NCBI GenBank assembly: GCA_964490395.1
Contig: CAZBAS010000001.1
Location: forward strand, 275,815 to 339,814
DNA from: an uncultured Candidatus Saccharibacteria bacterium
Lineage (GTDB): Bacteria > Patescibacteriota > Doudnabacteria > UBA920
Reading direction: 5' to 3'
DNA: 64,000 bases
Shown here: in pieces, positions 5,531 through 56,435 of the stretch
How the letters are laid out: every line of letters begins with the position of its first letter
How positions within the stretch are numbered: position 1 is the first letter of the stretch
The notes under the pieces: generated by a model
The model's input: the letters and a program-made list of their open reading frames with translations, nothing else
What the model was told of the DNA's origin: nothing
Database searches by the model: none
Made by a program: the position numbers and the translations under genes

Positions 5531-7042
5531 ATGACCAAGCACAAGATTTTAATTATCATTTGTGTGGGATTCCTTTTTGGGGTCGGCGTAGGGTCCGTGG
5601 TGTTTTTAGATATGCGCTGGGTGTATACGGGGATAGGGATGGTGGTAGTGGGGATAGTGGGGGTGGTGTGGCCGAATAGTAGTTACGAGGACCAAGTGAC
5701 GAATAACAAGTTAGGAGCACTTCGTTCATTGCTCACATCTAAGTTCTCGGCACTTACGGCTCTGTTGTTTTTGCTCGGTATTGGTATTGGTTTGTTGCGT
5801 GTTGATGCAGTGTTTCAACAACCGAATGAGTTTCAGCAGTGGCTTGGGACTAAACAGGATTTTGAAGGTGTAGTGGTTACCGAGCCCGATGTGCGACCCG
5901 ATAAACAACTTATTACCTTGCAACCTACTGGGTACTCACAACGAGTATTGGTAACAATGACCCTAACCACACGCATACAATATGGCGACCTGGTGTGGGT
6001 TCGAGGTAAAGTAGTAGAAGCAAAAGCATTCGACGATTTCGACTATCCAGGCTTTCTTGCCCGTTTTAATACGTATGCCTTAGCACGATTTCCAAAAGTG
6101 ATAGTAATTGCCCATGGCAAAGGGAACGCTATGGTAAGCCTATTGCTCCACCTTAAAGGTGTGTTGGTAGTCTATTTGTTGAGTCTGTACGACAACGTGC
6201 GAGGGAACTTTCTTCTCGGTATTCTCATTGGTGCAAAGCGGGGTTTGCCGCCGGAAGTTACGCAAAATTTTATTCGAACTGGCACGAGTCATATACTGGC
6301 AGTGTCAGGATTCAATATATCTATCTTTATTACGTGGCTCGCTTACGCAGCGTATGCAGTAGGGAGGCGTGCGCAAATTGTCTTGTCCGCACTGTGCATT
6401 ATTGCGTTTGTTATTATTGCTGGTCCCAGTAGCTCTGTGGTCCGGGCGGCATGTATGGGTGGTGTGTTTATGGTAGGCATGCTGAGCGGAAGGTTGTACT
6501 ATCCACTCATAGGGTTGTTATTTGTTGCTGCTGGTATGGTCTATGTAAATCCGCGGATTCTATATTGGGATATTGGTTTTCAGCTTAGTGCTGCAGCAAC
6601 CTTTGGCATTTTGCTCGGGGTTCCTTTTTTGGAAACTCTCAAAGAGCGAACGCGCGGGTTTTATAAAATATTCGAATTACTTGCTATAACTATGTGCGCA
6701 ATTGTTTTCACTTTGCCCATTAGTTTGTGGCATTTTGGCGAGCTCAGCATTGTTGCCCCTTTGGCAAACCTGCTACTTGTGCCGCCTGTTGAAATTGTCA
6801 TGGGCCTTGGTTTTCTTTCTTTTATACCTTGGGTGGGCAATGGGTTTGCCTGGATCAATGGGTATTTGCTTGGGTGGATGCTAAATTTACAACAAGTGTT
6901 AGCTAGGCCACATTGGGTTACCAGCGAGTTGCATATATCTGGTGCGCAAGTGCTGCTTTCGTATGTGTGTTTGGGCCTGGTATATGTGAGTGTGCGAAAA
7001 CTAATGCAGAGTAGGGTACGGTCTGGTCCAGAGGAAACTTAG
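5531..7042 (+). CDS. comEC: ComEC/Rec2 family DNA internalization channel protein (competence domain only)
   Basis: Polytopic membrane protein; GAKRGLPPEV...GTSHILAVSGFNI competence-domain signature. Confidence 0.8.
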   Translation: MTKHKILIIICVGFLFGVGVGSVVFLDMRWVYTGIGMVVVGIVGVVWPNSSYEDQVTNNKLGALRSLLTSKFSALTALLFLLGIGIGLLRVDAVFQQPNEFQQWLGTKQDFEGVVVTEPDVRPDKQLITLQPTGYSQRVLVTMTLTTRIQYGDLVWVRGKVVEAKAFDDFDYPGFLARFNTYALARFPKVIVIAHGKGNAMVSLLLHLKGVLVVYLLSLYDNVRGNFLLGILIGAKRGLPPEVTQNFIRTGTSHILAVSGFNISIFITWLAYAAYAVGRRAQIVLSALCIIAFVIIAGPSSSVVRAACMGGVFMVGMLSGRLYYPLIGLLFVAAGMVYVNPRILYWDIGFQLSAAATFGILLGVPFLETLKERTRGFYKIFELLAITMCAIVFTLPISLWHFGELSIVAPLANLLLVPPVEIVMGLGFLSFIPWVGNGFAWINGYLLGWMLNLQQVLARPHWVTSELHISGAQVLLSYVCLGLVYVSVRKLMQSRVRSGPEET

Positions 7043-7210
7043 TTAGAAGTGTTTGTGGTTGTTGCTAACGCTATGTTTGCTGCAGCTGTTTCATAATTGT
7101 GGGGTTGGCTAAACATAATTGCTATGGTACAATGGTCACGATATGGAAAAATACAAACGCCAATAATAAGCGTTTATTTTTAAAACTAATAACACTAGAT
7201 ACACCAAAAT

Positions 7211-8013: not shown

Positions 8014-9093
8014 ATGGAACTAACAGATTTCCCAGTTTTTAAAACTAAGACCGAAGGGGTAACGCAGGGCTTTGACTTAAACCACCCAAGCGGAAGACAG
8101 GAGTACTTTAAAGCCAAGGCAGGTCCAGAAATAGAAAAACTAAAAGCGTATTTGGCCGAAAAGTCATTTGTGGCTTTCCTGTTGGGTAAGAAAAACTCGG
8201 GAAAGGGTACCTACACAAAACTATTTATGGAAGCAGTTGGTGCTGAGCACGTTGCCCATATTTCTGTAGGTGACTTGGTTCGTGATGCGCATACTATATT
8301 CGAAACTGGTGCTGGCCGCGATGAGCTCGTTGCCTTTCTTGAGAAAGAATACCGCGGTTTCCACGGGGTAGAAATGGTAGAGGATATTATTCTCGGGAAA
8401 AACCAGGCTACACTATTGTCTTCTGAGCTTATTCTTGCTCTTATAAAGTACGAAATAAGCAAGCGACCAAAGCAGGCTATTTTTGTAGACGGTTTCCCTC
8501 GCGCTTTTGACCAGATTGGGTATTCGCTGTTCATGAAGGAAATTATTGGATATCGTAACGATCCAGACTTCTTCGTGTTCATAAGCGTACCAAATGCAAT
8601 AATTGATGAACGCATTAAGTACCGTGTTATTTGCCCTGTATGCAAAACGCCTCGTAACATGAAGTTACTTGCTACACGAGACGTAGGGTATGACGAAGAG
8701 CTTGATCAATTCTTCTTGAGGTGCGATAACTCGAATTGCTCTGCCCAGGGCACACGCATGGTTGGAAAAGAAGGGGACGAGCTTGGTATAGAGCCAATTC
8801 GCGAGCGCATAGAAACGGACAACCAGATATTCAAGCAACTCTTGCAGCTTAAGGGTGTGCCTCAGGTATATCTCCGTAACTCAGTACCTGTAGACCAGGC
8901 CGCAACGAGTGTAGACGAATATGAGCTTACTCCTGAATACCACTACCAGCGAAACCCAGAAACCGGCGAAATTAAAACTCTTGAAAAGCCGTGGACTGTA
9001 AAAGATGATGCAGGGGTAGAGTCATATAGCCTCATGCCATCGGCTGTTGCGCTTTCGTTAATTAAGCAGGTCGCAACAACACTCGGGTTATAA
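8014..9093 (+). CDS. Adenylate kinase-like nucleoside monophosphate kinase (long form with Cys4 LID)
   Basis: P-loop GKKNSGKGT, C-x2-C...C-x5-C LID-like zinc motif; longer than canonical Adk. Confidence 0.5.
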   Translation: MELTDFPVFKTKTEGVTQGFDLNHPSGRQEYFKAKAGPEIEKLKAYLAEKSFVAFLLGKKNSGKGTYTKLFMEAVGAEHVAHISVGDLVRDAHTIFETGAGRDELVAFLEKEYRGFHGVEMVEDIILGKNQATLLSSELILALIKYEISKRPKQAIFVDGFPRAFDQIGYSLFMKEIIGYRNDPDFFVFISVPNAIIDERIKYRVICPVCKTPRNMKLLATRDVGYDEELDQFFLRCDNSNCSAQGTRMVGKEGDELGIEPIRERIETDNQIFKQLLQLKGVPQVYLRNSVPVDQAATSVDEYELTPEYHYQRNPETGEIKTLEKPWTVKDDAGVESYSLMPSAVALSLIKQVATTLGL

Positions 9094-11743: not shown

Positions 11744-12781
11744 ATGCCAGAACTACCTGAAGTTGAGACTGTTGTTTCGGAATTGCATAAAAAGCTGAAA
11801 GGGAAAACCATTGCTTCGGTTGAAGTGCGAAAACCAAAGCTTATTAGTGTTGGGCCAAAGACTGTTTCGAACATTCGTAAAGTGAGTAAGAGCAAAGTAA
11901 AAATATTTCAGGAATTATTAGCTGGGCAGAAAGTTGTTTCGGTGAAACGGAGGGCGAAGTTGTTGATATTTGATTTGGACCGTAGTCTCACCCCCTCTAA
12001 CTCCCCCTTAGAAAAGGGGAGAACAAGAGAAAATACCTTTGGTCCTGCCCCTCTCCTTTCTAAGGAGAGGCTGGGTGTGGTGAAAGAAACTGGTTCATTA
12101 TCAATGCTCGTGCATTTGAAAATGACCGGACAGTTTATATGCGAAAACAAGGCGCTTCGTAAAAAAACAAATGGCAAATATAGAATTCTAAACAGGCCAA
12201 CAGCGCCACTCGTACAGCTGCCCTGTAAGTTTACGCATGTAATTTTCCATTTTTCAGATGAGTCAACGCTTTACTTTAATGACATGCGCCAGTTCGGCTA
12301 TCTAAAAATAGTGCGCGATGATGAGATTGGCCGAGTCCGCGAACTGAAAGAATTTGGTCCTGAACCTTTCTCAAAAGAGTTCACGTGCGAAAAGTTTAAG
12401 GCTGCAGTAAAAAAGAGGATTAAGTCACCTATTAAGCTTGTGCTCATGGACCCTAAAGTCGTGGCGGGAATAGGGAATATATATAGCGATGAAATTTTAT
12501 TTCATGCAGGCGTACGGCCAGAGCGGCTCGTATCAAGAATTAAGAATCAAGAATTAAGCAAAATCTATGAAGCCATACGGCCCATCCTAAAGAAAGGGAT
12601 AGAGGCTAAAGGCTCAAGTGTAGGAGACTTTGTACGTACCGACGGCACCTGGGGCCAGATGGGAAAATATCATTTTGTGTATGGCCGTAAAGGAGAAGAC
12701 TGCAAACGTTGTGGTACTATAATAGAAAGCACAAAGCTCGGCGGCCGCACCGCAAGCTTCTGCCCGAAGTGCCAGGTATAG
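11744..12781 (+). CDS. fpg: Formamidopyrimidine-DNA glycosylase family (Fpg/Nei) carrying an in-frame roughly 40-aa palindromic insertion
   Basis: MPELPEVETV N-terminus (catalytic Pro2/Glu3), C-terminal zinc finger CxxC...CxxC; extra segment 11990-12110. Confidence 0.85.
   Translation: MPELPEVETVVSELHKKLKGKTIASVEVRKPKLISVGPKTVSNIRKVSKSKVKIFQELLAGQKVVSVKRRAKLLIFDLDRSLTPSNSPLEKGRTRENTFGPAPLLSKERLGVVKETGSLSMLVHLKMTGQFICENKALRKKTNGKYRILNRPTAPLVQLPCKFTHVIFHFSDESTLYFNDMRQFGYLKIVRDDEIGRVRELKEFGPEPFSKEFTCEKFKAAVKKRIKSPIKLVLMDPKVVAGIGNIYSDEILFHAGVRPERLVSRIKNQELSKIYEAIRPILKKGIEAKGSSVGDFVRTDGTWGQMGKYHFVYGRKGEDCKRCGTIIESTKLGGRTASFCPKCQV
11995..12075. repeat. Two adjacent perfect/near-perfect hairpins inside fpg CDS (CTCCCCCTTAGAAAAGGGGAG and CCTCTCCTTTCTAAGGAGAGG)
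   Basis: Palindromes read directly; in frame within fpg. Confidence 0.8.
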
Positions 12782-12799
12782 AATTATGAATTACGAATT

Positions 12800-13018
12800 A
12801 TGAATCAAGAAAATAGTGTTGAATTTTCTGATCGTGAGATGTTGCTGGAAATTTTAGAACATTCTCGCAAAACAAAAAACTACATAAAGTGGCAACTTAT
12901 TATTACGGTTGCGTTGGTTGTTGTGCCTTTGCTTGCTATGGGTGTAATTTTGCCTATTGCGCTGAAGTCCCTGGGGTCGGTTTATGGCAGTGGCGGGATA
13001 TTAGAGGGGATTCAATAA
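12800..13018 (+). CDS. Small membrane protein (72 aa)
   Basis: One hydrophobic helix; ORF only. Confidence 0.35.
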   Translation: MNQENSVEFSDREMLLEILEHSRKTKNYIKWQLIITVALVVVPLLAMGVILPIALKSLGSVYGSGGILEGIQ

Positions 13019-13089
13019 CATAGGACTTATATGCCATATAGGCCCTATAGGACAAATAGGTCTTATATTCTTTTCACCTAATTCATAAC

Positions 13090-13123
13090 CCGCCTCTTCG
13101 GCGGACATGCCGATGAGGCATGG
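13090..13123. repeat. Intergenic double-hairpin element (CCGCCTCTTCGGCGGAC + CATGCCGATGAGGCATGG); 17-mer identical to copy inside CDS at 55450
   Basis: Exact 17-nt match to 55450-55466; two stem-loops. Confidence 0.8.
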
Positions 13124-13149: not shown

Positions 13150-13473
13150 ATGACCGAAGAAAAATGGGATCAGATGTGTGAAATGCTTGAGGACAAATAC
13201 CCTGACCTTGAGCGATATAGAGAAAATTTAGAAGGGGAGCATGGGGGCGTGCAAGAGGTGCTAGAGTTTGAAGGGCCGGCTGGGCCAATGCGTGTAGTGC
13301 GTACGAGCAAGCCAGCGGTAACAGGCGTGGAGCACCACTATTCGCATCGTCAGGGGGCGACTGCTAGTACGGAATACAAATACTCAGACAGCGAAATGGC
13401 GCACAAAGTAAAAGTCTACCGAGAAGTAGGTGGTGAGTGGGAAGAAATGGATGCAAGCAGTATGGGATTCTAG
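13150..13473 (+). CDS. Small acidic hypothetical protein (107 aa)
   Basis: ORF only. Confidence 0.35.
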   Translation: MTEEKWDQMCEMLEDKYPDLERYRENLEGEHGGVQEVLEFEGPAGPMRVVRTSKPAVTGVEHHYSHRQGATASTEYKYSDSEMAHKVKVYREVGGEWEEMDASSMGF

Positions 13474-13476
13474 GGA

Positions 13477-13620
13477 AGTGACAAAAATTAAAAAAGTGAC
13501 CCTCCTACGCTAAAGCTACGGCGGGCGCAGCAATAAATTTTTGCCTGTCCGCCATAGCCTTGGCGACGGTGGATCATTTTTACTTATTTTTGTTCACTTT
13601 TGTCATTTACCTAAGGGGTA
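13477..13620. repeat. Composite intergenic palindromic element (AT-rich GTGACAAAAAT arms flanking GC-rich GCTAAAGCTACGGCGGG ... CCGCCATAGCCTTGGC hairpin)
   Basis: Nested inverted repeats; shares a 16-mer (1 mismatch) with the in-CDS element at 15301 and a 13-mer with 46196. Confidence 0.7.
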
Positions 13621-14553: not shown

Positions 14554-14587
14554 TTACATTGACGAATCTGCGAATGGAACGAATGTT

Positions 14588-14649
14588 ACGAATAACTGCG
14601 AATCTAGAGACCGTATAAATGCGGTCTGTCGATATTCGCAGTTATTCGT
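14588..14649. terminator. Bidirectional terminator element: 16-bp perfect inverted repeat ACGAATAACTGCGAAT/ATTCGCAGTTATTCGT around inner hairpin GACCGTATAAATGCGGTC
   Basis: Between convergent genes; same 16-mer recurs at 40899-40914. Confidence 0.7.
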
Positions 14650-14690
14650 TGTATTCGTCTATTCGTAGGATTCGTCAACACACCAGCCGT

Positions 14691-15548
14691 CTATGCCTTT
14701 GTAAACTCTAACACTAGAATTATGGGAAACCTGTGGAGCTGGTAGGTGAGGTTGTAGCTGTTACTGTCGGTAGGGCTTTGGATGTCCTCTAGACCTGTAA
14801 GGGTAAGCCCAGCCTGTGCCGCGTTTCTTATGTGCGTGGAGAGGGGAGTAAAATGTGATCCAAGATTTGGGCGCCATTCGAAGTTTGGTCGGTTTTGCCG
14901 CATCATTTCATTGTAGAACCGTGCAAGTCGCAGGTGCGGTTTTTTCATAAGCAAGCGCCCAACAATCCCACGTTTCCATTCACCAATGGGGTACCCATAG
15001 TAGGGGTTTACAATGCTGGCAAGTAGTGTGCCGCCTGGTTTTAAAACTTCTGTAATGTGGGTTAAGGTAGCGAGCTCGTCTTCAACATCATGTATAACCA
15101 TGCTCGCTGTGACTACATCGAAACTGTCTTTTTCGTAGGGGAGGGGCCTATTTAAGTCGCACACTGTAAAATGCACTTCTGGATATTTTGTTTTCGCAAG
15201 TTCTATAAGCGGCGCTCCTGCATCGCAGGCAAAAACAGTAATAGTGTCATTCTGAGCCGCCCTGGGCGAAGAATCTGTATTGCGAGATTCTTCCACCGCC
15301 GCTAAAGCTATGGCGGACAAGTCGGTCGCCAGGCCTCCCTCAGAATGACGGAAAAAATTAGATAAAAGCCCTGCCAGCCAGCCATCGCCGCATCCCGCGT
15401 CTAATATCCGCATTGGTTGTTGCGAGCTCCCAGCTATTTTTTGCAAAAACGTTTTACCCAATACTTCTCGAAAAATCTTTCCGTCTTCAGAATCCAAAAA
15501 ATGTTGATATGCAGTACTCGCTGCGCCGCTATTGTATGAGTGGTCCAT
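14691..15548 (-). CDS. Class I SAM-dependent methyltransferase carrying an in-frame 114-bp palindromic insertion
   Basis: Motif I ILDAGCGDGWLAG; Rossmann methyltransferase order; insertion at 15246-15359. Confidence 0.75.
   Translation of the reverse strand: MDHSYNSGAASTAYQHFLDSEDGKIFREVLGKTFLQKIAGSSQQPMRILDAGCGDGWLAGLLSNFFRHSEGGLATDLSAIALAAVEESRNTDSSPRAAQNDTITVFACDAGAPLIELAKTKYPEVHFTVCDLNRPLPYEKDSFDVVTASMVIHDVEDELATLTHITEVLKPGGTLLASIVNPYYGYPIGEWKRGIVGRLLMKKPHLRLARFYNEMMRQNRPNFEWRPNLGSHFTPLSTHIRNAAQAGLTLTGLEDIQSPTDSNSYNLTYQLHRFPIILVLEFTKA
15246..15359. repeat. 114-bp GC-rich element with 11-bp terminal inverted repeats (GTCATTCTGAG/CTCAGAATGAC) and inner 9-bp IR, inside the methyltransferase CDS, in frame
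   Basis: Length is a multiple of 3; contains GCTAAAGCTATGGCGG matching intergenic 13509. Confidence 0.8.
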
Positions 15549-18864: not shown

Positions 18865-19340
18865 AAAATGAGGGAATTATCAAAATTCGGCATATTTAAA
18901 GTAAATAATTTTAGGACAGACTATTGACTAAAACGCAACAATAGCGTATACTCTTATTTCAACATCAAAAACAGTACCAATTCACAAAACACGCCTGCCA
19001 AGTTGCGCGTTTTTTGTTTCTCCGGGCTACCAAATAACTGGTAACAGCGGTGTTTATGCTCCTGATTCCGTATCGCACGGATTGGGGGCGCTATAAAAGT
19101 CACGAGAAGTCAGGGTAATATTACATGGCCCTATGGACTCTCTTCGTGGCTTTTTTGTATATACAGTCCAAATTTACAAATATGACAAATCTACAAATGG
19201 CTACAAATAATACAAAGGCCCGGGGTGGGCCAGGTATTATTTGACCAAATGAGTGAATTTCCTTATAATTCCATTGAATTTACCGGATTGATATTTGCAC
19301 TTAATTCGTAATTCTACATTCTTAATTCTACATTTTTCCA

Positions 19341-19511: not shown

Positions 19512-19560
19512 AAGCTTCTTAGCTTGTAGCTAGTTAGCTTATTAGGAATAACCATTCCGA

Positions 19561-19608
19561 GCTAAAAAGCTAAAAAGCTAAAAAGCTAAAAAGCTAAAAA
19601 GCTAAAAA
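19561..19608. repeat. Tandem 8-mer repeat (GCTAAAAA)x6 ending exactly at the nusB start codon
   Basis: Six perfect units read directly. Confidence 0.9.
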
Positions 19609-20046
19609 ATGGCCAATCGTCATCTATCTAGAACAGTTGCAATGCAAACTCTCTTTGAGTGGGACTTTAACGCCCAAGAGCAGTCTTTAGATGACCTAGT
19701 CCAACTTAATCTTGAACAGTTTGCGCCCGGAATGGACGACCATGCTTTTGTGAAAAGTTTGGTTAGTGGCGTTGTGCAACATCTTGCTGAAATTGATGGC
19801 ATTATTACCGCAACGGCGCCTGAATGGCCTATAGAGCAAATTAGTAGCGTTGATAGAAGTGTTCTCAGGCTTGGCATATATGAACTCGAGTTCTTAAAAG
19901 AAGTTCCTCCTAAGGTTGCTATAAACGAAGCAGTTGAACTTGCTAAAACATTCGGCGGCGAAACAAGCGGCAAGTTTGTGAATGGGGTACTGGGAACACT
20001 GTACAAAAAATTATATCCTACCGATTCTGTAGAAACGCAGCAGTAA
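19609..20046 (+). CDS. nusB: Transcription antitermination factor NusB
   Basis: NusB family sequence. Confidence 0.85.
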
Positions 20047-20676: not shown

Positions 20677-20714
20677 TGGCGTAAGCCAGACGAAGCTTCA
20701 GCGAAGTCTGGTGC
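20677..20714. repeat. 37/38-nt motif GGCGTAAGCCAGACGAAGC-N5-GCGAAGTCTGGTGC, direct-repeat copy of the sequence abutting tRNA-Arg (45011-45047), ending in a tRNA-3'-end-like GCACCA (complement)
   Basis: Near-identical to 45011-45047; followed on minus strand by GGTATCCCGC resembling tRNA-Gly acceptor 3' strand. Confidence 0.7.
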
Positions 20715-22467: not shown

Positions 22468-25400
22468 ATGACTTCTAGTTTCTCAAAGAAACTCGTTGCA
22501 GCAGTATCTGTTGCTTCTATGTTTGCTTTTGCTGCCCCAGCTTTGGCTGCGGCTCACGCAGAAGGTACAAACGTTAGCAAGCCAGATGGTTCTGTATGTA
22601 TGGTTCGCATGGGCCAGCTACAGTGCTACACCTCTGCTGGCGCTTTCCTTTCCTATGGTTTCAACTCTTGGAGCCAGGTAGTAGCAGCCAACAGCGATGA
22701 CCTCGCTTTGCCAATGGGTTCCTTCATTGCTCCTCAAGACGGTAGCGTTATCTTCTCGGATCGCGGTGCTGACAAGGGGACTGGTTACATTCTCAGCGGT
22801 GGCATGAAATATGGCTTCCCAACTGAAGCAGTTTTCAAAGCACAGGGCTATAGCTACTCCACAGCAATGTGGGCAGATATCTCTTGGGTAAGCATGGGCG
22901 GCACAATCAACGCCGGCGATGCAGCTCATCTTCCTGGTACTTTGGTAAACAACGGCGGTACTGTACAGCTTGTTGGTAACACTGGTCTTATGGGTATCCC
23001 TGACCTTGCTACCTTCAACAGCTGGGGTTACAGCTTTGCTAAAGTCGTTCCTGCTAACGCAAACGATAAAGCAAAGACTCAAACTGGTGTTATGCCAACT
23101 CGCGTAGCGGGTCAGCTCTCCCCAACCAGCACTGTAGTAGTTACTCCAACCGGATCTGTATCTGCGTCACTTTCTTCTGATAATCCAGCTACTGGTACTC
23201 TAGTTGCTGGTCAGGCTTTGGCAGATCTCGCACATATCAACCTCACTGGCAGCGGCACTGTTACCGCTTTAACCTTTGAACGTATTGGCGTTTCTGCAAA
23301 CACAACTCCTTCAAACGTATATTTGTTTGAAGGATCAACTCGTTTGACCGATTCTGCTTCCTTTGGTTCTGACAACAAAGTAACTTTTGCTGGTCTGAAC
23401 TGGAACGTAAGCGGTACTCGCACAATCGCAGTTAAGTCTGATATTGCTTCTAGTACATCAGGCCAAACGGTTGGTGTTAAGCTGACTTCTATCACTTCTG
23501 GTAGCACAGCTTCTACTGTATCCGTTTCTGGTAACATCCACAGCATTGCTACTGCAACTTTGGCTGGCGTTGCTTTGTCTTCTGCAACTGGTTCTGGTAA
23601 CACAGACCCAGGCAAAGACATCAACGTATGGCAGGGTACAGTAACTGTGTCTACTCGCGATGTAACCTTGAACCGCATGGCTCTTCGCCAGGTAGGTTCT
23701 ATCATTCCATCTGATATCAACAACTTCCGCTTGTTCGTTGACGGTGTGCAGGTCGCACAGGCCCAAAACCTCGATACGAATGGCTACGTAACCTTCACCC
23801 CGAACACCGTTATCAAGACTGGTGCTCGCGCCGTAAAGGTTATGGCCGATGTTGTCGGTGGTTCTGGTCGCACCGTTCAGTTGTCTCTCCGTGGCGCATA
23901 TGATTTCGCTACAACTGACAGCTCTTACGGCGCCATGATTGCCGCAACCGGATCCTTCCCATTTGGTCCTTCTTCCTTCACTGTGAACGCTGGTGCATTG
24001 ACTGTTGCTAAGGCAACTGACTCTCCATCTGCGAACGTAGTGGCTGGTGCTTCCGACGTTTCCGTTGGTAAGTGGACCTTCACTGCATACGGTGAACCGA
24101 TTAAAGTAGAAACCTTGACTGTTGGTGTTAACACCAATGGTACCGATGCAAACAACAGCTTCCGCAATGTTCGCATTATGGTTGATGGTTCCCAGGTTGG
24201 TAGCACAACCAGCGTCGCAGCTGTAGACAGCTATGCCTCTGGTACTTCCTTTACCACCAACTTCACTGTTACTCCTGGTACGCCTCGCGTAGTAGAAGTA
24301 CGCTCTGATATGGTAGACGATACTGCAACTGACTTGATTGCGAATGGCACCACCACTTCTGCACAATTTGCATTGGTAGCTGGTTCCTCTAACGCAACTC
24401 CTCAGGTTTCCTTGAGCATGATCAATGTTCCAACTGCATCTGTTGCGGCTAACAGCCTCACCATTGCAAGCGGTAGCGTTTCCCTTGCCAAGACCTCTAC
24501 TTACCCAGATCAAAGCGTTGTTACCCCACAGACTGCTTACAAGATTGGTTCTTTCACTTTGAGCGGCAACTCTTCTGAAGCTGTCAATGTGAACACTTTC
24601 ACTTTGAGCATGACTGTAACTGACAACACTGGTGCCCCTGCTGCAACTGTTGCTGATGTTACTGACGTATACCTCAAGTATGGTTCCAATCAAACCTCTG
24701 TAAAGCCGACTATTGCTGCTTCTGGCAACACCTGGTCCCCAAGCTTTACTTTGGCCAAGAACGAAACCATGCAGGTAGACGTGTACGGTACTCTCGGCTC
24801 TGATATTCAGGCAACCGACACTGTACAAGCAAGCTTGCTTGTTTCTGGTACCGCTGCACAGTCTGGTTCGGCTGTAAACACGAACAGCAATGCTGTTCTT
24901 GCTGGTCAGACCATCACTGCTGGCTCTGGCTCTATAACCGCTACTAAAGATGCTTCTTCTCCAGACGCTCGTTTGGTTGATGACTCTGGTACGGTAACCA
25001 CTGCAGCCTTCAAATTTGCTGCAGTCACCGATAGCTACTCCTTGACCGACTTCACCTTTACCTTGGGTAATGCGTCTGCCGTATCTAGCGTAGCTCTGAA
25101 GGATGGTTCTACCACTTTGGCAACAAAGCCTGGTTCTACCTCTGTTACCTTCAATGGTCTGAATGTTCCAGTTGCTTCTAACACCAATAAAATACTCACT
25201 GTAGAACTTACCTTGAGCCCAGTTGGTGTTGGTGCTGGTACAACTGACTCTTCTTTACTCACTACCTTGACTGACTTTACTGCCCGCAACTCTGGTGGTA
25301 CTTCAGCTGCAGGTACTGAGTCAAACCCGGCTGGTAACAACATGTACATCTACAAGGCTGTACCAACCGTGTCTCAGATTGCCTTGCCAAACTCTGACTT

Positions 25401-25947
25401 GGCTGCTGGTACAAACGTTACCATCGCGAAGTTCAGCGTAAACACCAACGGCACTGGTACAATTGCTTGGAAGCAAATCATGCTGGAAATCAGCAAGACT
25501 GCTACCCCAACTTTGTCCAGCATCGCTTTGTACAATGCTGATAGCAACACGCAGATTACTGCAGCTACTGCATTCCAGAACGGTTCTGCTGGTGTGGCAA
25601 CTACTTGTGTAGGCGACAACACCTCTTGTGAACTCCTTATCACTGTTGGCACAAACGCTGACGATGATACCGTAGAAACTGTAAGCGGCGCTCGCAACTA
25701 CGAAGTACGTGCAACAATCGGCGGCAGCATTGCTGCTACCGACAGCGTATCTGTGAAGTTGGATAACAACATCACTTCTCACGCTGCTTCTGCAGCATTC
25801 CAGACCAACAAGAACTCTGCTGCTGCAAACAACACATCATTCACCTGGAGCGATGAGTCTGCTTCGGCAACCAACGACACTGGTGTATCTACCTGGCAAA
25901 AGGATTACTTGGTCAAGAACCTGCCTATTAGCTGGAACATGAACTAA
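22468..25947 (+). CDS. Giant secreted Thr/Ser/Ala/Gly/Val-rich cell-surface protein (S-layer or adhesin candidate) with N-terminal signal peptide
   Basis: Signal peptide MTSSFSKKLVAAVSVASMFAFAAPALAAAHA; 1159 aa low-complexity beta-rich composition; SD GGAG before ATG; long upstream leader. Confidence 0.6.
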   Translation: MTSSFSKKLVAAVSVASMFAFAAPALAAAHAEGTNVSKPDGSVCMVRMGQLQCYTSAGAFLSYGFNSWSQVVAANSDDLALPMGSFIAPQDGSVIFSDRGADKGTGYILSGGMKYGFPTEAVFKAQGYSYSTAMWADISWVSMGGTINAGDAAHLPGTLVNNGGTVQLVGNTGLMGIPDLATFNSWGYSFAKVVPANANDKAKTQTGVMPTRVAGQLSPTSTVVVTPTGSVSASLSSDNPATGTLVAGQALADLAHINLTGSGTVTALTFERIGVSANTTPSNVYLFEGSTRLTDSASFGSDNKVTFAGLNWNVSGTRTIAVKSDIASSTSGQTVGVKLTSITSGSTASTVSVSGNIHSIATATLAGVALSSATGSGNTDPGKDINVWQGTVTVSTRDVTLNRMALRQVGSIIPSDINNFRLFVDGVQVAQAQNLDTNGYVTFTPNTVIKTGARAVKVMADVVGGSGRTVQLSLRGAYDFATTDSSYGAMIAATGSFPFGPSSFTVNAGALTVAKATDSPSANVVAGASDVSVGKWTFTAYGEPIKVETLTVGVNTNGTDANNSFRNVRIMVDGSQVGSTTSVAAVDSYASGTSFTTNFTVTPGTPRVVEVRSDMVDDTATDLIANGTTTSAQFALVAGSSNATPQVSLSMINVPTASVAANSLTIASGSVSLAKTSTYPDQSVVTPQTAYKIGSFTLSGNSSEAVNVNTFTLSMTVTDNTGAPAATVADVTDVYLKYGSNQTSVKPTIAASGNTWSPSFTLAKNETMQVDVYGTLGSDIQATDTVQASLLVSGTAAQSGSAVNTNSNAVLAGQTITAGSGSITATKDASSPDARLVDDSGTVTTAAFKFAAVTDSYSLTDFTFTLGNASAVSSVALKDGSTTLATKPGSTSVTFNGLNVPVASNTNKILTVELTLSPVGVGAGTTDSSLLTTLTDFTARNSGGTSAAGTESNPAGNNMYIYKAVPTVSQIALPNSDLAAGTNVTIAKFSVNTNGTGTIAWKQIMLEISKTATPTLSSIALYNADSNTQITAATAFQNGSAGVATTCVGDNTSCELLITVGTNADDDTVETVSGARNYEVRATIGGSIAATDSVSVKLDNNITSHAASAAFQTNKNSAAANNTSFTWSDESASATNDTGVSTWQKDYLVKNLPISWNMN

Positions 25948-37620: not shown

Positions 37621-37740
37621 GCAATGCAGAATTATGAAGTCAGAATTATGAATTATGAGAATGCATGTGAGGTGCCTTGCGGTTTTTTCTCGTCCGACTG
37701 TATTCATAATTCAATATTCTTAATTCTGTATTTTATGGTA
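37621..37740 (+). terminator. Word-based hairpin terminator (CAGAATTATGAA x2 ... TTCATAATTC) plus GCGGTTTTTTCTCG
   Basis: Inverted repeats and T-run after the sugar transferase gene; the GAATTATGAA word recurs at 12781. Confidence 0.55.
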
Positions 37741-39607: not shown

Positions 39608-40822
39608 ATGGCTAAATTTACCTACACAGCATTAAAACCCGACGGTAGTCGCGAGAAAGGATCTCTCTCGGCTAGCTCAAGCATGGCTGCAGGCCACGAG
39701 CTGCACGAACGAGGGCTGACGCCTATAGACTTAAAAGAGGTAACGGCCGCAAGTGATCCACTGGCGTTTTTGGCCAATTTTAGGTCGGTCCCACTTGCAG
39801 AGAAGTTGACGTTCGTGGAAAATTTGGAGCTCATGCTCAAGAGCGGTATTCCTGTATCGCGGAGTATGCGCATTTTGGCGAAGCAAACGCGCAACCGCAG
39901 ATTTTCCAAAATTCTAGAAAGCTTGGAACAGGCTGTAGAAAATGGAAGCCAGTTGTACGAGGCCATGAATGCGTACCCTCAGGTCTTTTCTGCAATTTTT
40001 GTAAACATGATTAAGGTGGGTGAGCTTTCTGGTAATTTGGAAACCAGCTTGAGTCAGCTCGGCATACAACTGGAGCGTGAAGCGGACCTGCGCAGTAGGG
40101 TTCGGGGGGCCATGATTTACCCATCGGTCATTGTGAGCGCGATGGTTATTATAGCCATTGTCATGTCTATCTTTGTTTTGCCAAAGCTCACTTCAGTGTT
40201 TAAAGATTTTGGTTCAGAACTCCCAACTGCAACAAAGATAGTAGTGGCGTTTAGCGATTTTATGGCGGGTCATGCTATTTTGGTTATCATTGGGTTTATA
40301 CTTCTGGTGGGGGGTGCTTCGTACGGCCTTAAGACCCCAATGGGAAAAGAAGGACTTAATAGAGTGTCACTCGTTGTTCCGGGTATAGGCCCCCTCGCCG
40401 TTAAGATAAATATTGCTCGGTTTACGCGCGTGCTTTCTTCGCTGCTCAAAAGCGGTATTCCCATTGTAGAAGCGTTAAATGTGGCAGGGCAGTCTATACC
40501 GAACAGTCTGTATAAACAGGCAATTACTGAAGCGTCGGAACGAGTAAAAGTGGGAAAAAGTTTAACTGAAGTATTGGCTGTGCACGAGCGACTCTTTCCG
40601 TTTTTAGTTGTGCAAATGCTTGAAGTAGGGGAAGAGACAGGAAGTTTGGAAAGTATTTTGGAACAGATAGCTACGCACTTTGAAGCGCAAATAGATGCTA
40701 CACTTAAGAATATGTCTTCTATTATTGAACCTCTGCTCCTGCTTATAATTGGTGGCGCAGTAGGAGCGCTGGCATATGCCCTCATTATCCCTATTTACAA
40801 TATTGGTACAAATATAAAATAA
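39608..40822 (+). CDS. pilC: Type IV pilus platform protein PilC (GspF family)
   Basis: Two T2SSF repeats, polytopic membrane. Confidence 0.85.
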   Translation: MAKFTYTALKPDGSREKGSLSASSSMAAGHELHERGLTPIDLKEVTAASDPLAFLANFRSVPLAEKLTFVENLELMLKSGIPVSRSMRILAKQTRNRRFSKILESLEQAVENGSQLYEAMNAYPQVFSAIFVNMIKVGELSGNLETSLSQLGIQLEREADLRSRVRGAMIYPSVIVSAMVIIAIVMSIFVLPKLTSVFKDFGSELPTATKIVVAFSDFMAGHAILVIIGFILLVGGASYGLKTPMGKEGLNRVSLVVPGIGPLAVKINIARFTRVLSSLLKSGIPIVEALNVAGQSIPNSLYKQAITEASERVKVGKSLTEVLAVHERLFPFLVVQMLEVGEETGSLESILEQIATHFEAQIDATLKNMSSIIEPLLLLIIGGAVGALAYALIIPIYNIGTNIK

Positions 40823-40950
40823 TAATGTTGACGAATATACAAATAAGAACGAATAAAACGAATGTCTACGAATATAATATTGACCGTTTTATTTATGGAT
40901 TCGCAGTTATTCGTAATATTCGATAATTTGTAGATTCGTCTACGCCTGAT

Positions 40951-43515: not shown

Positions 43516-43542
43516 CAAAAAACACCCGTTGGGTGTTTTTTT
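43516..43542 (+). terminator. Intrinsic terminator AAAAAACACCCGTTGGGTGTTTTTTT
   Basis: Hairpin + T-run after pilus operon. Confidence 0.75.
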
Positions 43543-43650
43543 ATGTATGCGCTCGCGAGGGTGTGAACTTGTGACCGTTTGCTTAATGGTCCCGCTCAGC
43601 GGGATTACCACCCAAGCAAACAAAAAACACTCCACAACGAGTGTTTTTAT

Positions 43651-43726
43651 TGGTGCGCCCAACAGGGATCGAACCTGTGACCGTTTGCTTAAGAGGCAAC
43701 TGCTCTACCAGCTGAGCTATGGGCGC
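43651..43726 (-). tRNA. tRNA-Lys (anticodon CUU), CCA encoded
   Basis: Manual cloverleaf: acceptor GCGCCCA/TGGGCGC, anticodon loop CTCTTAA, T-loop TTCGATC. Confidence 0.8.
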
Positions 43727-44990: not shown

Positions 44991-45041
44991 TTTTCGCAAA
45001 TATTGTATGTGGCGTAAGCCAGACGAAGCCTTGGCGAAGTC

Positions 45042-45118
45042 TGGTGCACCCGGCAGGATTTGAACCTGCTACCTCTTGGTTCGAAGCCAAGCACTCTATC
45101 CAAATGAGCTACGGGTGC
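45042..45118 (-). tRNA. tRNA-Arg (anticodon UCG), CCA encoded
   Basis: Manual cloverleaf: acceptor GCACCCG/CGGGTGC, anticodon stem CTTGG/CCAAG, loop CTTCGAA. Confidence 0.85.
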
Positions 45119-55097: not shown

Positions 55098-56435
55098 ATG
55101 CAGTATCTACTCGTAATAACGTTATTGGTTGCCCCTACTTACGCCATTCGTTTTGAGTTGTTTGGTTTACCGACGAACGTCCTTATGGTGTGGGTGTTCG
55201 TTGCTTGGTTTGTATTTGCTCTATGGCTTTTCGCTCGTCATAAATTTGCTAATCTTTTTCACTGGCTTCGTTCTGAGCTTGTTACTTGGCATGGTATACT
55301 TGCCGCTGTATTTTTTCTTGTAGGGGTAATTTCTCTTTTTGTTGGTGGATTCTCAGAGGAAAAGCTCGGCCAATTTCTCGTCCTCTTCTTCCAGCCGGTC
55401 GGCACTTTTATACTATTGCGCTATTTGTCTTCTATTGAAAATTGGAAATCCGCCTCTTCGGCGGACCAGCCAAAGAGGCTGGTTGGAAATGTGCTGACAC
55501 ACACAGCGTTGCTATTTGTATCAGTTGCTGGTCTCTATGCCATAGTCCAATATTTTACCCTCATTGGTGTGCCTGTCGCGTGGTGGGGTAACAGCGAAGA
55601 GCCAAAACGAGCAGTGGCGTTTTTCATGCATCCAAATTTTTATGCGCTGTTCATCACGCCGCTTTTGGCGTTCTTGCTACCCATAGTTAGTGGCCAGTGG
55701 CTGAAACAGGCAAGACAGGTGCACTCCGGTCCCTCTCCTCGCGAGCAGAGGTTACGTGAGATCACAGAAAAGCATTGTGATGCACCAGGGGTTTCTAAGA
55801 CCTCCTCCAACTCCTCATCACGAGGAGGAGGACAGGGCCTACTCACTACTTCCGCCTTGCTTCTCGGTGCAGTTGGCCTTTTGCTGTCTTTGTCCCGTGG
55901 CGGCTGGCTGGGCCTTGCTGCTGCGATTGGCGCCTATATTCTCATTACTGGAAATCGCACACTATTAAAACGCGCGGCCGCGCTTTTTGCTATTTCACTC
56001 ATTGTGGTACTCGCGGTGCCGAACTTTCGTTATAGGATACTGCTGCCATTCCGCGGGGAAAAATCGACCGTCGCACGGTTCTCTCTGTGGAATACCGGAT
56101 GGAAAATGGTTACAGATAGTCCGGTATTGGGTAAGGGTCTCTTGGGGTTTAGTAATAACTGGTATGCGTACAATACCGATTCAGGCCTACAACATTACCC
56201 AGCGCCGCACAATATTGTTTTAAATTTTTGGATAGACACAGGACTCCTTGGTCTCATATCCTTTTTTTGCCTGCTCGTGCTCGCCGCAGTTCGGAGTCTT
56301 AAAGACCGTGATAACGTGTACAAGCTTGGCCTCCTGCTTGCCTGCATTGCGCTGGTAGTCCATGGTCTCGTTGACATTCCCTATTTCAAAAATGACCTAG
56401 CATTACTGTTTTGGATGTTGTATAGTTTTATTTAA
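55098..56435 (+). CDS. O-antigen ligase/polymerase family membrane protein carrying two in-frame GC-rich palindromic insertions
   Basis: Wzy_C-like LSLSRGGWLGLAAAIG region; polytopic. Confidence 0.65.
   Translation: MQYLLVITLLVAPTYAIRFELFGLPTNVLMVWVFVAWFVFALWLFARHKFANLFHWLRSELVTWHGILAAVFFLVGVISLFVGGFSEEKLGQFLVLFFQPVGTFILLRYLSSIENWKSASSADQPKRLVGNVLTHTALLFVSVAGLYAIVQYFTLIGVPVAWWGNSEEPKRAVAFFMHPNFYALFITPLLAFLLPIVSGQWLKQARQVHSGPSPREQRLREITEKHCDAPGVSKTSSNSSSRGGGQGLLTTSALLLGAVGLLLSLSRGGWLGLAAAIGAYILITGNRTLLKRAAALFAISLIVVLAVPNFRYRILLPFRGEKSTVARFSLWNTGWKMVTDSPVLGKGLLGFSNNWYAYNTDSGLQHYPAPHNIVLNFWIDTGLLGLISFFCLLVLAAVRSLKDRDNVYKLGLLLACIALVVHGLVDIPYFKNDLALLFWMLYSFI
55450..55482. repeat. 33-bp double-hairpin element inside the ligase CDS, identical 17-mer to intergenic 13090; flanked by direct repeat (A/G)TTGGAAAT
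   Basis: CCGCCTCTTCGGCGGAC + CCAGCCAAAGAGGCTGG; TTGGAAAT at 55442-55449 and 55483-55490; 33+9=42 bp keeps the frame. Confidence 0.85.
55790..55850. repeat. Second polypyrimidine/polypurine palindrome (CCTCCTCC...GGAGGAGG) inside the ligase CDS
   Basis: Inverted repeat; encodes low-complexity SSNSSSRGGGQG segment. Confidence 0.55.

Follow-up and report, generated by a model that had tools for sequence, protein, structure and literature searches.

A probable selfish palindromic repeat, built of two nested hairpin families, read in frame within a methyltransferase gene of a Doudnabacteria-like bacterium

Results

The host gene and its palindromic element

The subject of this analysis is a stretch of 64,000 nucleotides from contig CAZBAS010000001.1 (assembly GCA_964490395.1), referred to below as the window, in which a gene for a class I S-adenosylmethionine (SAM)-dependent methyltransferase carries a palindromic element inside its coding sequence. 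The window's GroEL shares 87% identity with proteins that bear the name Candidatus Doudnabacteria, which makes the source a bacterium of the candidate phyla radiation (Patescibacteria). A preliminary description of the sequence had proposed both the nature of the host gene and the position of the element between methyltransferase motif I and post-I, and both are borne out by Pfam and by the reading of the open reading frame (ORF). The ORF matches the Pfam profiles Methyltransf_11, 25, 23, 31 and 12, and stays open across the whole element; the profile matches are interrupted between motif I (ILDAGCGDG, residues 48–56) and post-I (VFACD, residues 105–109). The gene order groES, methyltransferase, nucleotidyltransferase (NTase)-like gene, 107-residue ORF, 72-residue ORF and fpg is kept in the loci compared. 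In one of them, L005, an additional gene (23S_rRNA_IVP family, PF05635) lies at 6793–7182, between the NTase-like and 107-residue genes, where the window has a hairpin dimer. The host gene and the parts of the element are as follows.

14691–15548, minus strand: class I SAM-dependent methyltransferase, 285 residues (ORF, Pfam, AlphaFold, syntenic orthologues)
15245–15350, no strand assigned: whole composite palindromic element with its terminal tag bases (TGTC...GACG), 106 bp, encoding approximately residues 67–101 (RHSEGGLATDLSAIALAAVEESRNTDSSPRAAQND)
15246–15256, plus strand: left terminal inverted repeat GTCATTCTGAG (inverted-repeat search)
15339–15349, plus strand: right terminal inverted repeat CTCAGAATGAC, the perfect reverse complement of GTCATTCTGAG (inverted-repeat search)
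15246–15277, plus strand: unit A, resembling repetitive extragenic palindromic (REP) sequences, GTC + ATTCTGAG + 10-nt loop CCGCCCTGGG + CGAAGAAT + tail CTG (geometry compared with the family consensus)
15268–15293, plus strand: central hairpin GAAGAATCT / 8-nt loop / AGATTCTTC, formed from the inner ends of both inverted units (arms 15268–15276 and 15285–15293)
15292–15321, plus strand: nested 30-nt hairpin module TCCACCGCCGCTAAAGCTATGGCGGACAAG, encoding DLSAIALAAV (boundaries from the indel in locus L132 and from the metagenomic family)
15324–15349, plus strand: outer part of REP-like unit B in reverse orientation, GGTCGCCAGGCCTCC + CTCAGAATGAC (sequence and fold of the 74-nt remainder)

The element is a composite: its outer 74 nt consist of head-to-head REP-like units tagged with TGTC or CGTC, and a separate 30-nt hairpin module is nested in one of the units. 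The perfect 11-nt inverted repeat pair had been recognized before, but with the right arm placed at 15349–15359, which is 10 nt too far to the right. Measured between the outer ends of the arms, the length is accordingly 104 bp, and it becomes 106 bp when the tag bases are counted, instead of the 114 bp or 38 codons originally given, and neither length is divisible by three. The tag reads TGTC at 15245–15248 and CGTC on the opposite strand at 15350–15347. The inner inverted repeat GAAGAATCT/AGATTCTTC and the CCGCC...GGCGG arms, both previously noted, do lie inside the element; CCGCC (15296–15300) and GGCGG (15312–15316) enclose GCTAAAGCTAT. Owing to a 2-nt TC repeat, the module can be placed equally well at 15294–15323.

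The predicted fold of the element has an energy of −48.4 kcal/mol as RNA (z = −4.1) and a z-score of −5.3 as DNA. Without the module, the remaining 74 nt are predicted to form one long DNA hairpin (−23.8 kcal/mol, z = −6.7). A sliding 80-nt fold scan of the window detected intergenic hairpins only and missed the 104-nt element, which ranked 101st of 6389 when the scan was repeated with 110-nt windows. Among the Rfam 15 covariance models, only tRNAs reached the gathering score in the window, and a permissive search (E ≤ 10) of 15150–15450 and 13470–13620 returned only sub-threshold matches to generic hairpins, none of them relevant. The readings as an intein, intron or ribozyme were rejected, given the lack of matching motifs or models and the plain read-through of the frame.

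By itself, a perfect inverted repeat of 11 nt inside a span of 120 nt is no significant evidence of an element: about 1.8 are expected per 64-kb window, and 26 were observed, nearly all of them intergenic. The element is judged real because of its presence and absence among orthologues, its membership in a repeat family and its predicted folding energy. Other candidates within genes were rejected: the inverted-repeat pairs at 40167/40231 and 62352/62424 look accidental and, like a near-match (GTCATTGTGAG at 40127), represent ordinary coding sequence.

Presence, absence and replacement among orthologues

Fifty homologues of the methyltransferase were found, and 32 of them were aligned with the window protein (33 sequences). 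Most homologues are 246–256 residues long, with 9–14 residues linking helix alpha-A to strand beta-2; the linker of the window protein has 46 residues, and this loop is 32–37 residues longer than in orthologues free of inserts. The syntenic orthologue L005 has a 14-residue linker devoid of any insert. The element is found in L001 (its gene 75% identical in nucleotides outside the element), in L133 (93.5%), and in L002–L004, whose protein sequence equals that of the window. At the same loop, L007, L129, L130 and L131 carry unrelated palindromes or sets of hairpins with folding energies of −44 to −76 kcal/mol. Some homologues also have an insert at a second site, directly upstream of motif I; the one in L130 is a canonical TGTC-ATTCCGGC...GCCGGAAT-CCA unit. 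Because the segment is missing from L005, present in close relatives and replaced by unrelated palindromes in four orthologues, it is an insertion and not a conserved subdomain. A similar insert in all homologues, which would have spoken for a protein subdomain, is not what the alignment shows. The expectation that no insertion should occur at this site, on the other hand, did not hold: the site is a permissive surface loop which has been hit by palindromes repeatedly.

Locus L132, which encodes protein P0052, bears on the architecture of the element. Its protein is 98% identical to that of the window, and the rest of its gene 96.4% identical at the nucleotide level, but a piece of exactly 30 nt is missing (GACTTGTCCGCCATAGCTTTAGCGGCGGTG, as read along the coding strand), so that DLSAIALAAV is gone. 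The other 74 nt of the element are 100% identical to those of the window, and the 2-nt TC repeat flanks the indel.

A further in-frame palindrome was observed in fpg (11744–12781, plus strand), the gene of an Fpg/Nei glycosylase, which contains an insert of about 27 residues, TPSNSPLEKGRTRENTFGPAPLLSKERLGVV, at 11987–12083. Its hairpins (CTCCCCCTTAGAAAAGGGGAG, CCTCTCCTTTCTAAGGAGAGG and CTCACCCC...GGGTGTGGTGA) are like the methyltransferase palindromes of L007, L129 and L130, and the fpg orthologues in L007 and L008 have, in place of the insert, a shorter and different sequence (SPRLRRTSG). With inserts in both fpg and the methyltransferase gene, reading through selfish hairpins therefore appears to be a habit of this lineage.

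The outer TGTC-tagged family

The outer termini belong to a dispersed family. A search of one genome per species for both 11-nt arms at a spacing of 60–90 nt retrieved at least 120 loci. The matches listed include Acidobacteriota, Chloroflexota, Bacteroidota, Verrucomicrobiota, Firmicutes, Proteobacteria, Planctomycetota, Melainabacteria, Saccharimonadales and CPR3, and the arm pair is also present in nine viral contigs. All 127 copies listed share one layout: (T)GTCATTCTGAG, a short variable stretch, CGAAGAATC, a variable centre, GATTCTTCG, again a variable stretch, then CTCAGAATGAC(A). Among the 254 ends of these copies, GTC has a T on its 5' side in 90% and a C in 7%, which yields the TGTC/CGTC tag. 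The unit consensus is (T)GTC-ATTCTGAG-CGAAG-CGAAGAAT-C(T/C)(C/A), with 8-nt arms and a 5-nt loop. The arms ATTCTGAG/CGAAGAAT begin with A-T and T-A, and pair at six of eight positions around a tandem G-A/A-G in the middle of the stem. The tail at positions 25–27 is C, T/C, C/A, and reads CCA in a subset of copies, for instance those of Verrucomicrobiota.

Only 8 of the 127 listed copies lie in an ORF extending at least 50 codons to both sides, against 58% of random positions, an approximately tenfold depletion. We do not count these eight as further intragenic cases, as most are spurious Arg/Pro/Gly-rich ORFs of high-GC genomes; one of them, L026, sits between two real domains. The lengths of the listed copies show no preference modulo three. 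Copies from certain lineages agree in their non-palindromic centres as well, whichever way round they lie; therefore, whole elements have been duplicated, as in the Acidobacteriota loci L037, L055, L057 and L074. Of the loci sampled, some other genomes contributed 3–4 each. A palindrome that runs on into the flanks is slightly in excess in the family (4.8% vs 0.55% of copies), and no more than a minor feature. A literature search with the terminal sequences returned primers and vector sequences only.

The nested 30-nt module

The preliminary description had proposed that the coding element is an in-frame member of an intergenic hairpin family. This is upheld by the orthologues and the family copies, except that two nested families are involved instead of one. 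The module follows the formula CCGCC-NNC-GCTAAAGCTAY-GGCGG-ACAAG, and its 16-nt core is present at no fewer than 120 metagenomic loci whose flanks are unrelated. What is conserved at these loci is limited to about 30 nt (cCCGCCTTCGCTAAAGCTACGGCGGaCAAG), and this span coincides with the L132 indel. The GCTAAAGCTAYGGCGG core marks a second dispersed family, separate from that of the outer termini. The module is nested with TGTC-type units elsewhere too (L220, L248). It appears to be undescribed in the searchable literature, where the 30-nt core sequence gave no match.

The window contains a second occurrence of the module family, outside of genes.

13497–13577: intergenic inverted dimer of the 30-nt module family, downstream of the 107-residue ORF, with cores at 13509–13524 (plus strand) and 13549–13564 (minus strand)

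As stated earlier, GCTAAAGCTATGGCGG (15301–15316) differs from 13509–13524 at one position (T/C). It also matches 13549–13564 on the opposite strand, with two further differences. The inverted sharing once reported from 13548 is real, as a 28-nt match of 89% between 15292–15319 and 13546–13573, although its start was misplaced. The dimer is present in the close relatives L002 and L133 and absent from L001, L005 and L007.

Several side observations concern the module. It forms local arrays of 3–4 copies at the metagenomic loci L159, L172 and L230, followed in L172 and L230 by tandem GGCGGACAAG-like repeats, and directly adjoins tRNA genes in L178 and L240. A 40-nt repeat in the window (13080–13119 and 55440–55479, 80% identical) forms the hairpin CCGCCTCTTCGGCGGAC, the CCGCC/GGCGG stem of which resembles that of the module.

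Consequences for the protein

On each strand of the element, stop codons leave just one frame open, and the gene uses that frame. Since the only open frame is the frame in use, the ribosome reads through the element and adds about 35 residues. An AlphaFold prediction based on the 33-sequence alignment (mean predicted local distance difference test, pLDDT, of 82) yields a confident Rossmann-type core that matches solved SAM methyltransferases. The insert falls between alpha-A (residues 57–71) and beta-2 (103–109). It was suggested beforehand that the insert might form a surface loop, and the prediction agrees: residues 71–100 make a low-confidence excursion (pLDDT 51–67) off the confident core, between flanking blocks at 87–97, with a short helix predicted at residues 77–87. 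All residues invariant in the alignment are retained by the window protein. In the model, the insert is thus tolerated as a poorly ordered surface excursion, and the catalytic core stays intact and conserved.

Divergence from the L001 orthologue

Within the element, the window and L001 differ at six nucleotides, all six nonsynonymous, and the central 58 nt are identical. In the outer stem, the changes do not compensate for one another (CCTGG/CCAGG became CCCGG/CCAAG). Identity at third codon positions is mosaic along the methyltransferase gene, reaching 0.8–1.0 in tracts and 0.2–0.5 elsewhere. The tracts of high identity cover approximately codons 53–122, 138–152 and 178–222; around the element, high third-position identity extends some 15–20 codons past both of its ends. 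Such a mosaic suggests recombination within the gene between diverged Doudnabacteria lineages. We read the tract at codons ~53–122 as a likely trace of recombination that would have moved the insert-bearing allele between lineages.

Other repeats and unusual genes in the window

An intergenic hairpin with CGAAT-rich arms (ACGAATGTTACGAATAACTGCGAATC / GATTCGCAGTTATTCGT) occupies 14571–14670, between the convergent NTase-like and methyltransferase genes; its fold z-score of −6.1 is the second lowest in the window. An arm at 40898–40922 (site 40898–40933) matches it at 96%, which points to a further repeat family. An AT-rich intergenic family, AGAATTATGAATTACGAATTATGAAT and its complement, is found partly as inverted pairs at 12529–12563, 12780–12814, 19299–19336 and 37623–37734. 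The 8-nt unit AGCTAAAA is repeated in tandem at 19560–19615, in four perfect overlapping 24-nt copies that reach the start codon of nusB (19609). Two copies of a 38-nt hairpin repeat, TGGCGTAAGCCAGACGAAGCTTCAGCGAAGTCTGGTGC, are 92% identical (20677–20714 and 45010–45047), and the second directly adjoins the 3' end of a tRNA gene (45045–45118, minus strand). A 52-nt stretch, 43535–43586, is 77% identical to 43641–43692, part of the tRNA gene at 43654–43726, and may be a decayed tRNA duplicate. The largest gene of the window, an ORF of 1159 residues (22468–25947, plus strand), is uncharacterized and matches no Pfam profile at E ≤ 0.001. An adenylate-kinase-like ORF of 359 residues (8014–9093, plus strand) is much longer than usual and may carry insertions or extensions; only its residues 130–255 match the Pfam ADK profile, at profile positions 50–123.

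Discussion

Origin and persistence of the insert

We consider it probable that the segment is a non-autonomous palindromic repeat, an in-frame insertion of selfish hairpin DNA, and not a protein domain. The composite was inserted into the alpha-A/beta-2 loop of the methyltransferase, where it may persist as a nearly neutral passenger while selection purges insertions that disrupt reading frame or folding. Such a filter on sites and frames would explain why different palindromes occupy the same loop and one other loop. Dispersal most likely proceeds via single-stranded hairpin DNA and an enzyme supplied in trans, be it of the HUH/Y1 type or part of the replication and repair functions, and insert-bearing alleles probably spread by homologous recombination as well.

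Several observations weigh against this account. Scanning the 62 ORFs of the window with Pfam revealed no transposase, RAYT (REP-associated tyrosine transposase) or integrase, and no match to Y1_Tnp. No target-site duplication is seen at the window copy or across the flanks of the family. The outer element occurs as a single copy in the window, and its mobility within this genome is at most putative. Gain and loss of the module would both fit the 30-nt difference from L132, a single 1.7-kb contig. Conservation is the next difficulty: nucleotide identity to L001 is 94% in the element against 75% in the rest of the gene, and conserved residues have identical codons in 30 of 30 cases within the element against 114 of 196 elsewhere (P ~3e-7), a pattern that strict neutrality does not predict. 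Lastly, the geometry departs from that of the CGTC-tagged REPs as given by Di Nocera et al. (PMC3733652): the loops of the window element measure 10 and 15+30 nt instead of 4–5 nt, its tails are CTG and CTC instead of CCA, and its arms pair at six of eight positions with a tandem G-A.

The absence of a transposase from the window also admits an origin in host processes. The palindrome could have arisen or spread by template switching or snap-back synthesis at replication forks, or by gene conversion with another copy as donor, followed by homologous recombination that passed the allele between lineages. We hold this to be unlikely, yet it deserves to be taken seriously. It would account for the lack of a transposase in the window and of a target-site duplication, for the mere 2-nt microhomology (TC) at the 30-nt indel, for the mosaic third-position identity around the element, and for the small excess of palindrome-continuing flanks (4.8% vs 0.55%); for CGTC repeats too, no dedicated transposase was found by Di Nocera et al. 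(PMC3733652). It fares worse with the recurrence of whole elements with non-palindromic centres at unrelated loci, both within and between genomes (L037, L055, L057, L074), and the sharp, constant module boundaries at no fewer than 120 loci fit the copying and insertion of a defined unit better.

A broader version of the selfish-repeat account can be entertained as a speculation, to which we give rather little credence. Both modules, the 74–110-nt TGTC dimer and the 30-nt CCGCC...GGCGGACAAG hairpin, might represent a pan-bacterial class of tiny hairpins, conserved across phyla through widespread trans-acting machinery, inserting into each other's loops, and recurrently inserting, in bacteria of the candidate phyla radiation (CPR) such as Doudnabacteria, into the surface loops of proteins with housekeeping roles (methyltransferase, Fpg). 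If true, hairpin modules would be a general source of protein loop expansion.

The high conservation might instead reflect co-option of the hairpin for a function in the mRNA or DNA, such as modulating translation, the decay of the mRNA or the binding of proteins, with nucleotide-level selection maintaining it. The strong predicted structure (RNA −48.4 kcal/mol, z = −4.1; 74-nt DNA core, z = −6.7) agrees with such a role, as do the excess of identity to L001 (94% vs 75%), the zero synonymous differences in 30 conserved codons and the identical 58-nt centre. We nevertheless regard co-option as improbable. High third-position identity continues beyond the element and recurs in other tracts, which speaks for mosaic recombination and not for constraint; the outer-stem substitutions are uncompensated, orthologues do without the insert or have unrelated palindromes, and there is no match in Rfam.

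Selection for the encoded peptide is more doubtful still. A lineage-specific subdomain, for example a helix SAIALAAVEES contacting a substrate or partner, would be consistent with the short helix predicted by AlphaFold at residues 77–87 and with the insert being kept in frame across several related strains. Yet the insert is missing from the syntenic orthologue and from most homologues, unrelated sequences take its place elsewhere, the 10 helix-coding residues are dispensable in L132, pLDDT is low, and all six nucleotide differences from L001 are nonsynonymous; the DNA itself belongs to non-coding repeat families with no length preference modulo three. We therefore find this explanation very improbable. 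An origin of the inverted repeat by chance within coding sequence, or as an artefact of assembly, is already refuted: although about 1.8 such repeats are expected per 64 kb and two other coding pairs look accidental, the element is present in five or more independent assemblies (L001–L004, L133), its termini and inner boxes match the family at 120 loci or more, and it coincides with an indel relative to orthologues.

Implications

As a probable insertion of selfish hairpin DNA, the segment would extend protein-coding palindromes past Rickettsia and Proteobacteria to an uncultivated CPR lineage. A literature search for CPR together with palindromic or intragenic repeats returned no dedicated paper. 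Within one family of orthologues, palindromes have been inserted independently at one loop no fewer than four times, and near-identical strains differ by the presence or absence of the module. The locus might thus serve as a compact natural experiment on how protein structure filters selfish hairpin DNA, and on whether the modules still move. In metagenome-assembled genomes, such inserts inflate or fragment gene predictions and domain alignments, and yield many spurious "hypothetical proteins" (the HSE...SLRMT and SAFAKATADKS peptides).

Comparison with known repeat systems

Protein-coding palindromes were reportedly described by Ogata et al. (2002) as a feature unique to Rickettsia. Di Nocera et al. 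later mention them in some other species, and assign the Rickettsia palindromic elements (RPEs) RPE-4 and RPE-6 to the CGTC-tagged REPs (PMC3733652). RPEs (Ogata et al. 2000 and 2002, summarized in PMC10969869) are inserted in frame in unrelated housekeeping genes of Rickettsia and are translated as additional peptide. The likeness of the window element to RPEs is one of behaviour, and may be no closer than analogy: an in-frame palindrome in a conserved gene, an uninterrupted host ORF, a position predicted to be compatible with the fold, and a status as presumed selfish DNA. The host phylum is different, the length is 104–106 bp against about 150 bp for RPE-1, and the window element is a nested composite of two families in a loop that, among orthologues, has been hit by several unrelated palindromes.

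MITEs, or miniature inverted-repeat transposable elements, are likewise small and non-coding, have terminal inverted repeats (perfect over 11 nt here) and occasionally fuse in frame with a host ORF (PMC10969869). They differ from the window element in that the latter has no target-site duplication, only its inner module being flanked by a 2-nt TC repeat, and the 62 ORFs of the window revealed no parent insertion sequence whose ends match. REPINs, the REP doublets of the RAYT system (Bertels and Rainey 2011, PMC3116915), are also short and non-autonomous, and consist of two inverted REP units and a spacer that form a long hairpin. Their tag, however, is GTAG/GTGG (PMC3116915) instead of TGTC/CGTC, and the system is defined by a single-copy, REP-flanked RAYT gene (Y1 HUH), none of which is present in the 64-kb window. 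REPINs are lineage-specific and vertically inherited, whereas the outer family described here has identical termini across phyla.

The closest likeness is to the CGTC-tagged REPs. According to PMC3733652, these have a terminal CGTC (with variants TGTC and CCTC), an 8–9-bp stem starting with A-T, a loop of 4–5 nt and mostly a CCA tail; they occur mainly as head-to-head dimers that can form one long hairpin, have no dedicated transposase, and are sometimes intragenic. The window element shares with them the terminal tag and the head-to-head dimers with structured spacers; its arms start with A-T/T-A, but pair at only six of eight positions; the family consensus shares the 8-nt arms and 5-nt loop, and many family copies have CCA tails. 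Both are mostly intergenic with a minority of copies in genes, are spread over several phyla, and have no dedicated transposase known. The supplements of Di Nocera et al. (PMC3733652) contain no matching sequence strings, and the Doudnabacteria-like CPR host and some phyla of the family go beyond those named in that paper. We therefore treat the window element as a relative or variant of the CGTC superfamily, likened to it by the described geometry and not to CGTC-1 to CGTC-4 individually. What lies beyond the published cases is the CPR host, the nested composite with its strain-level 30-nt polymorphism, and the repeated, independent acquisition of palindromes at one loop.

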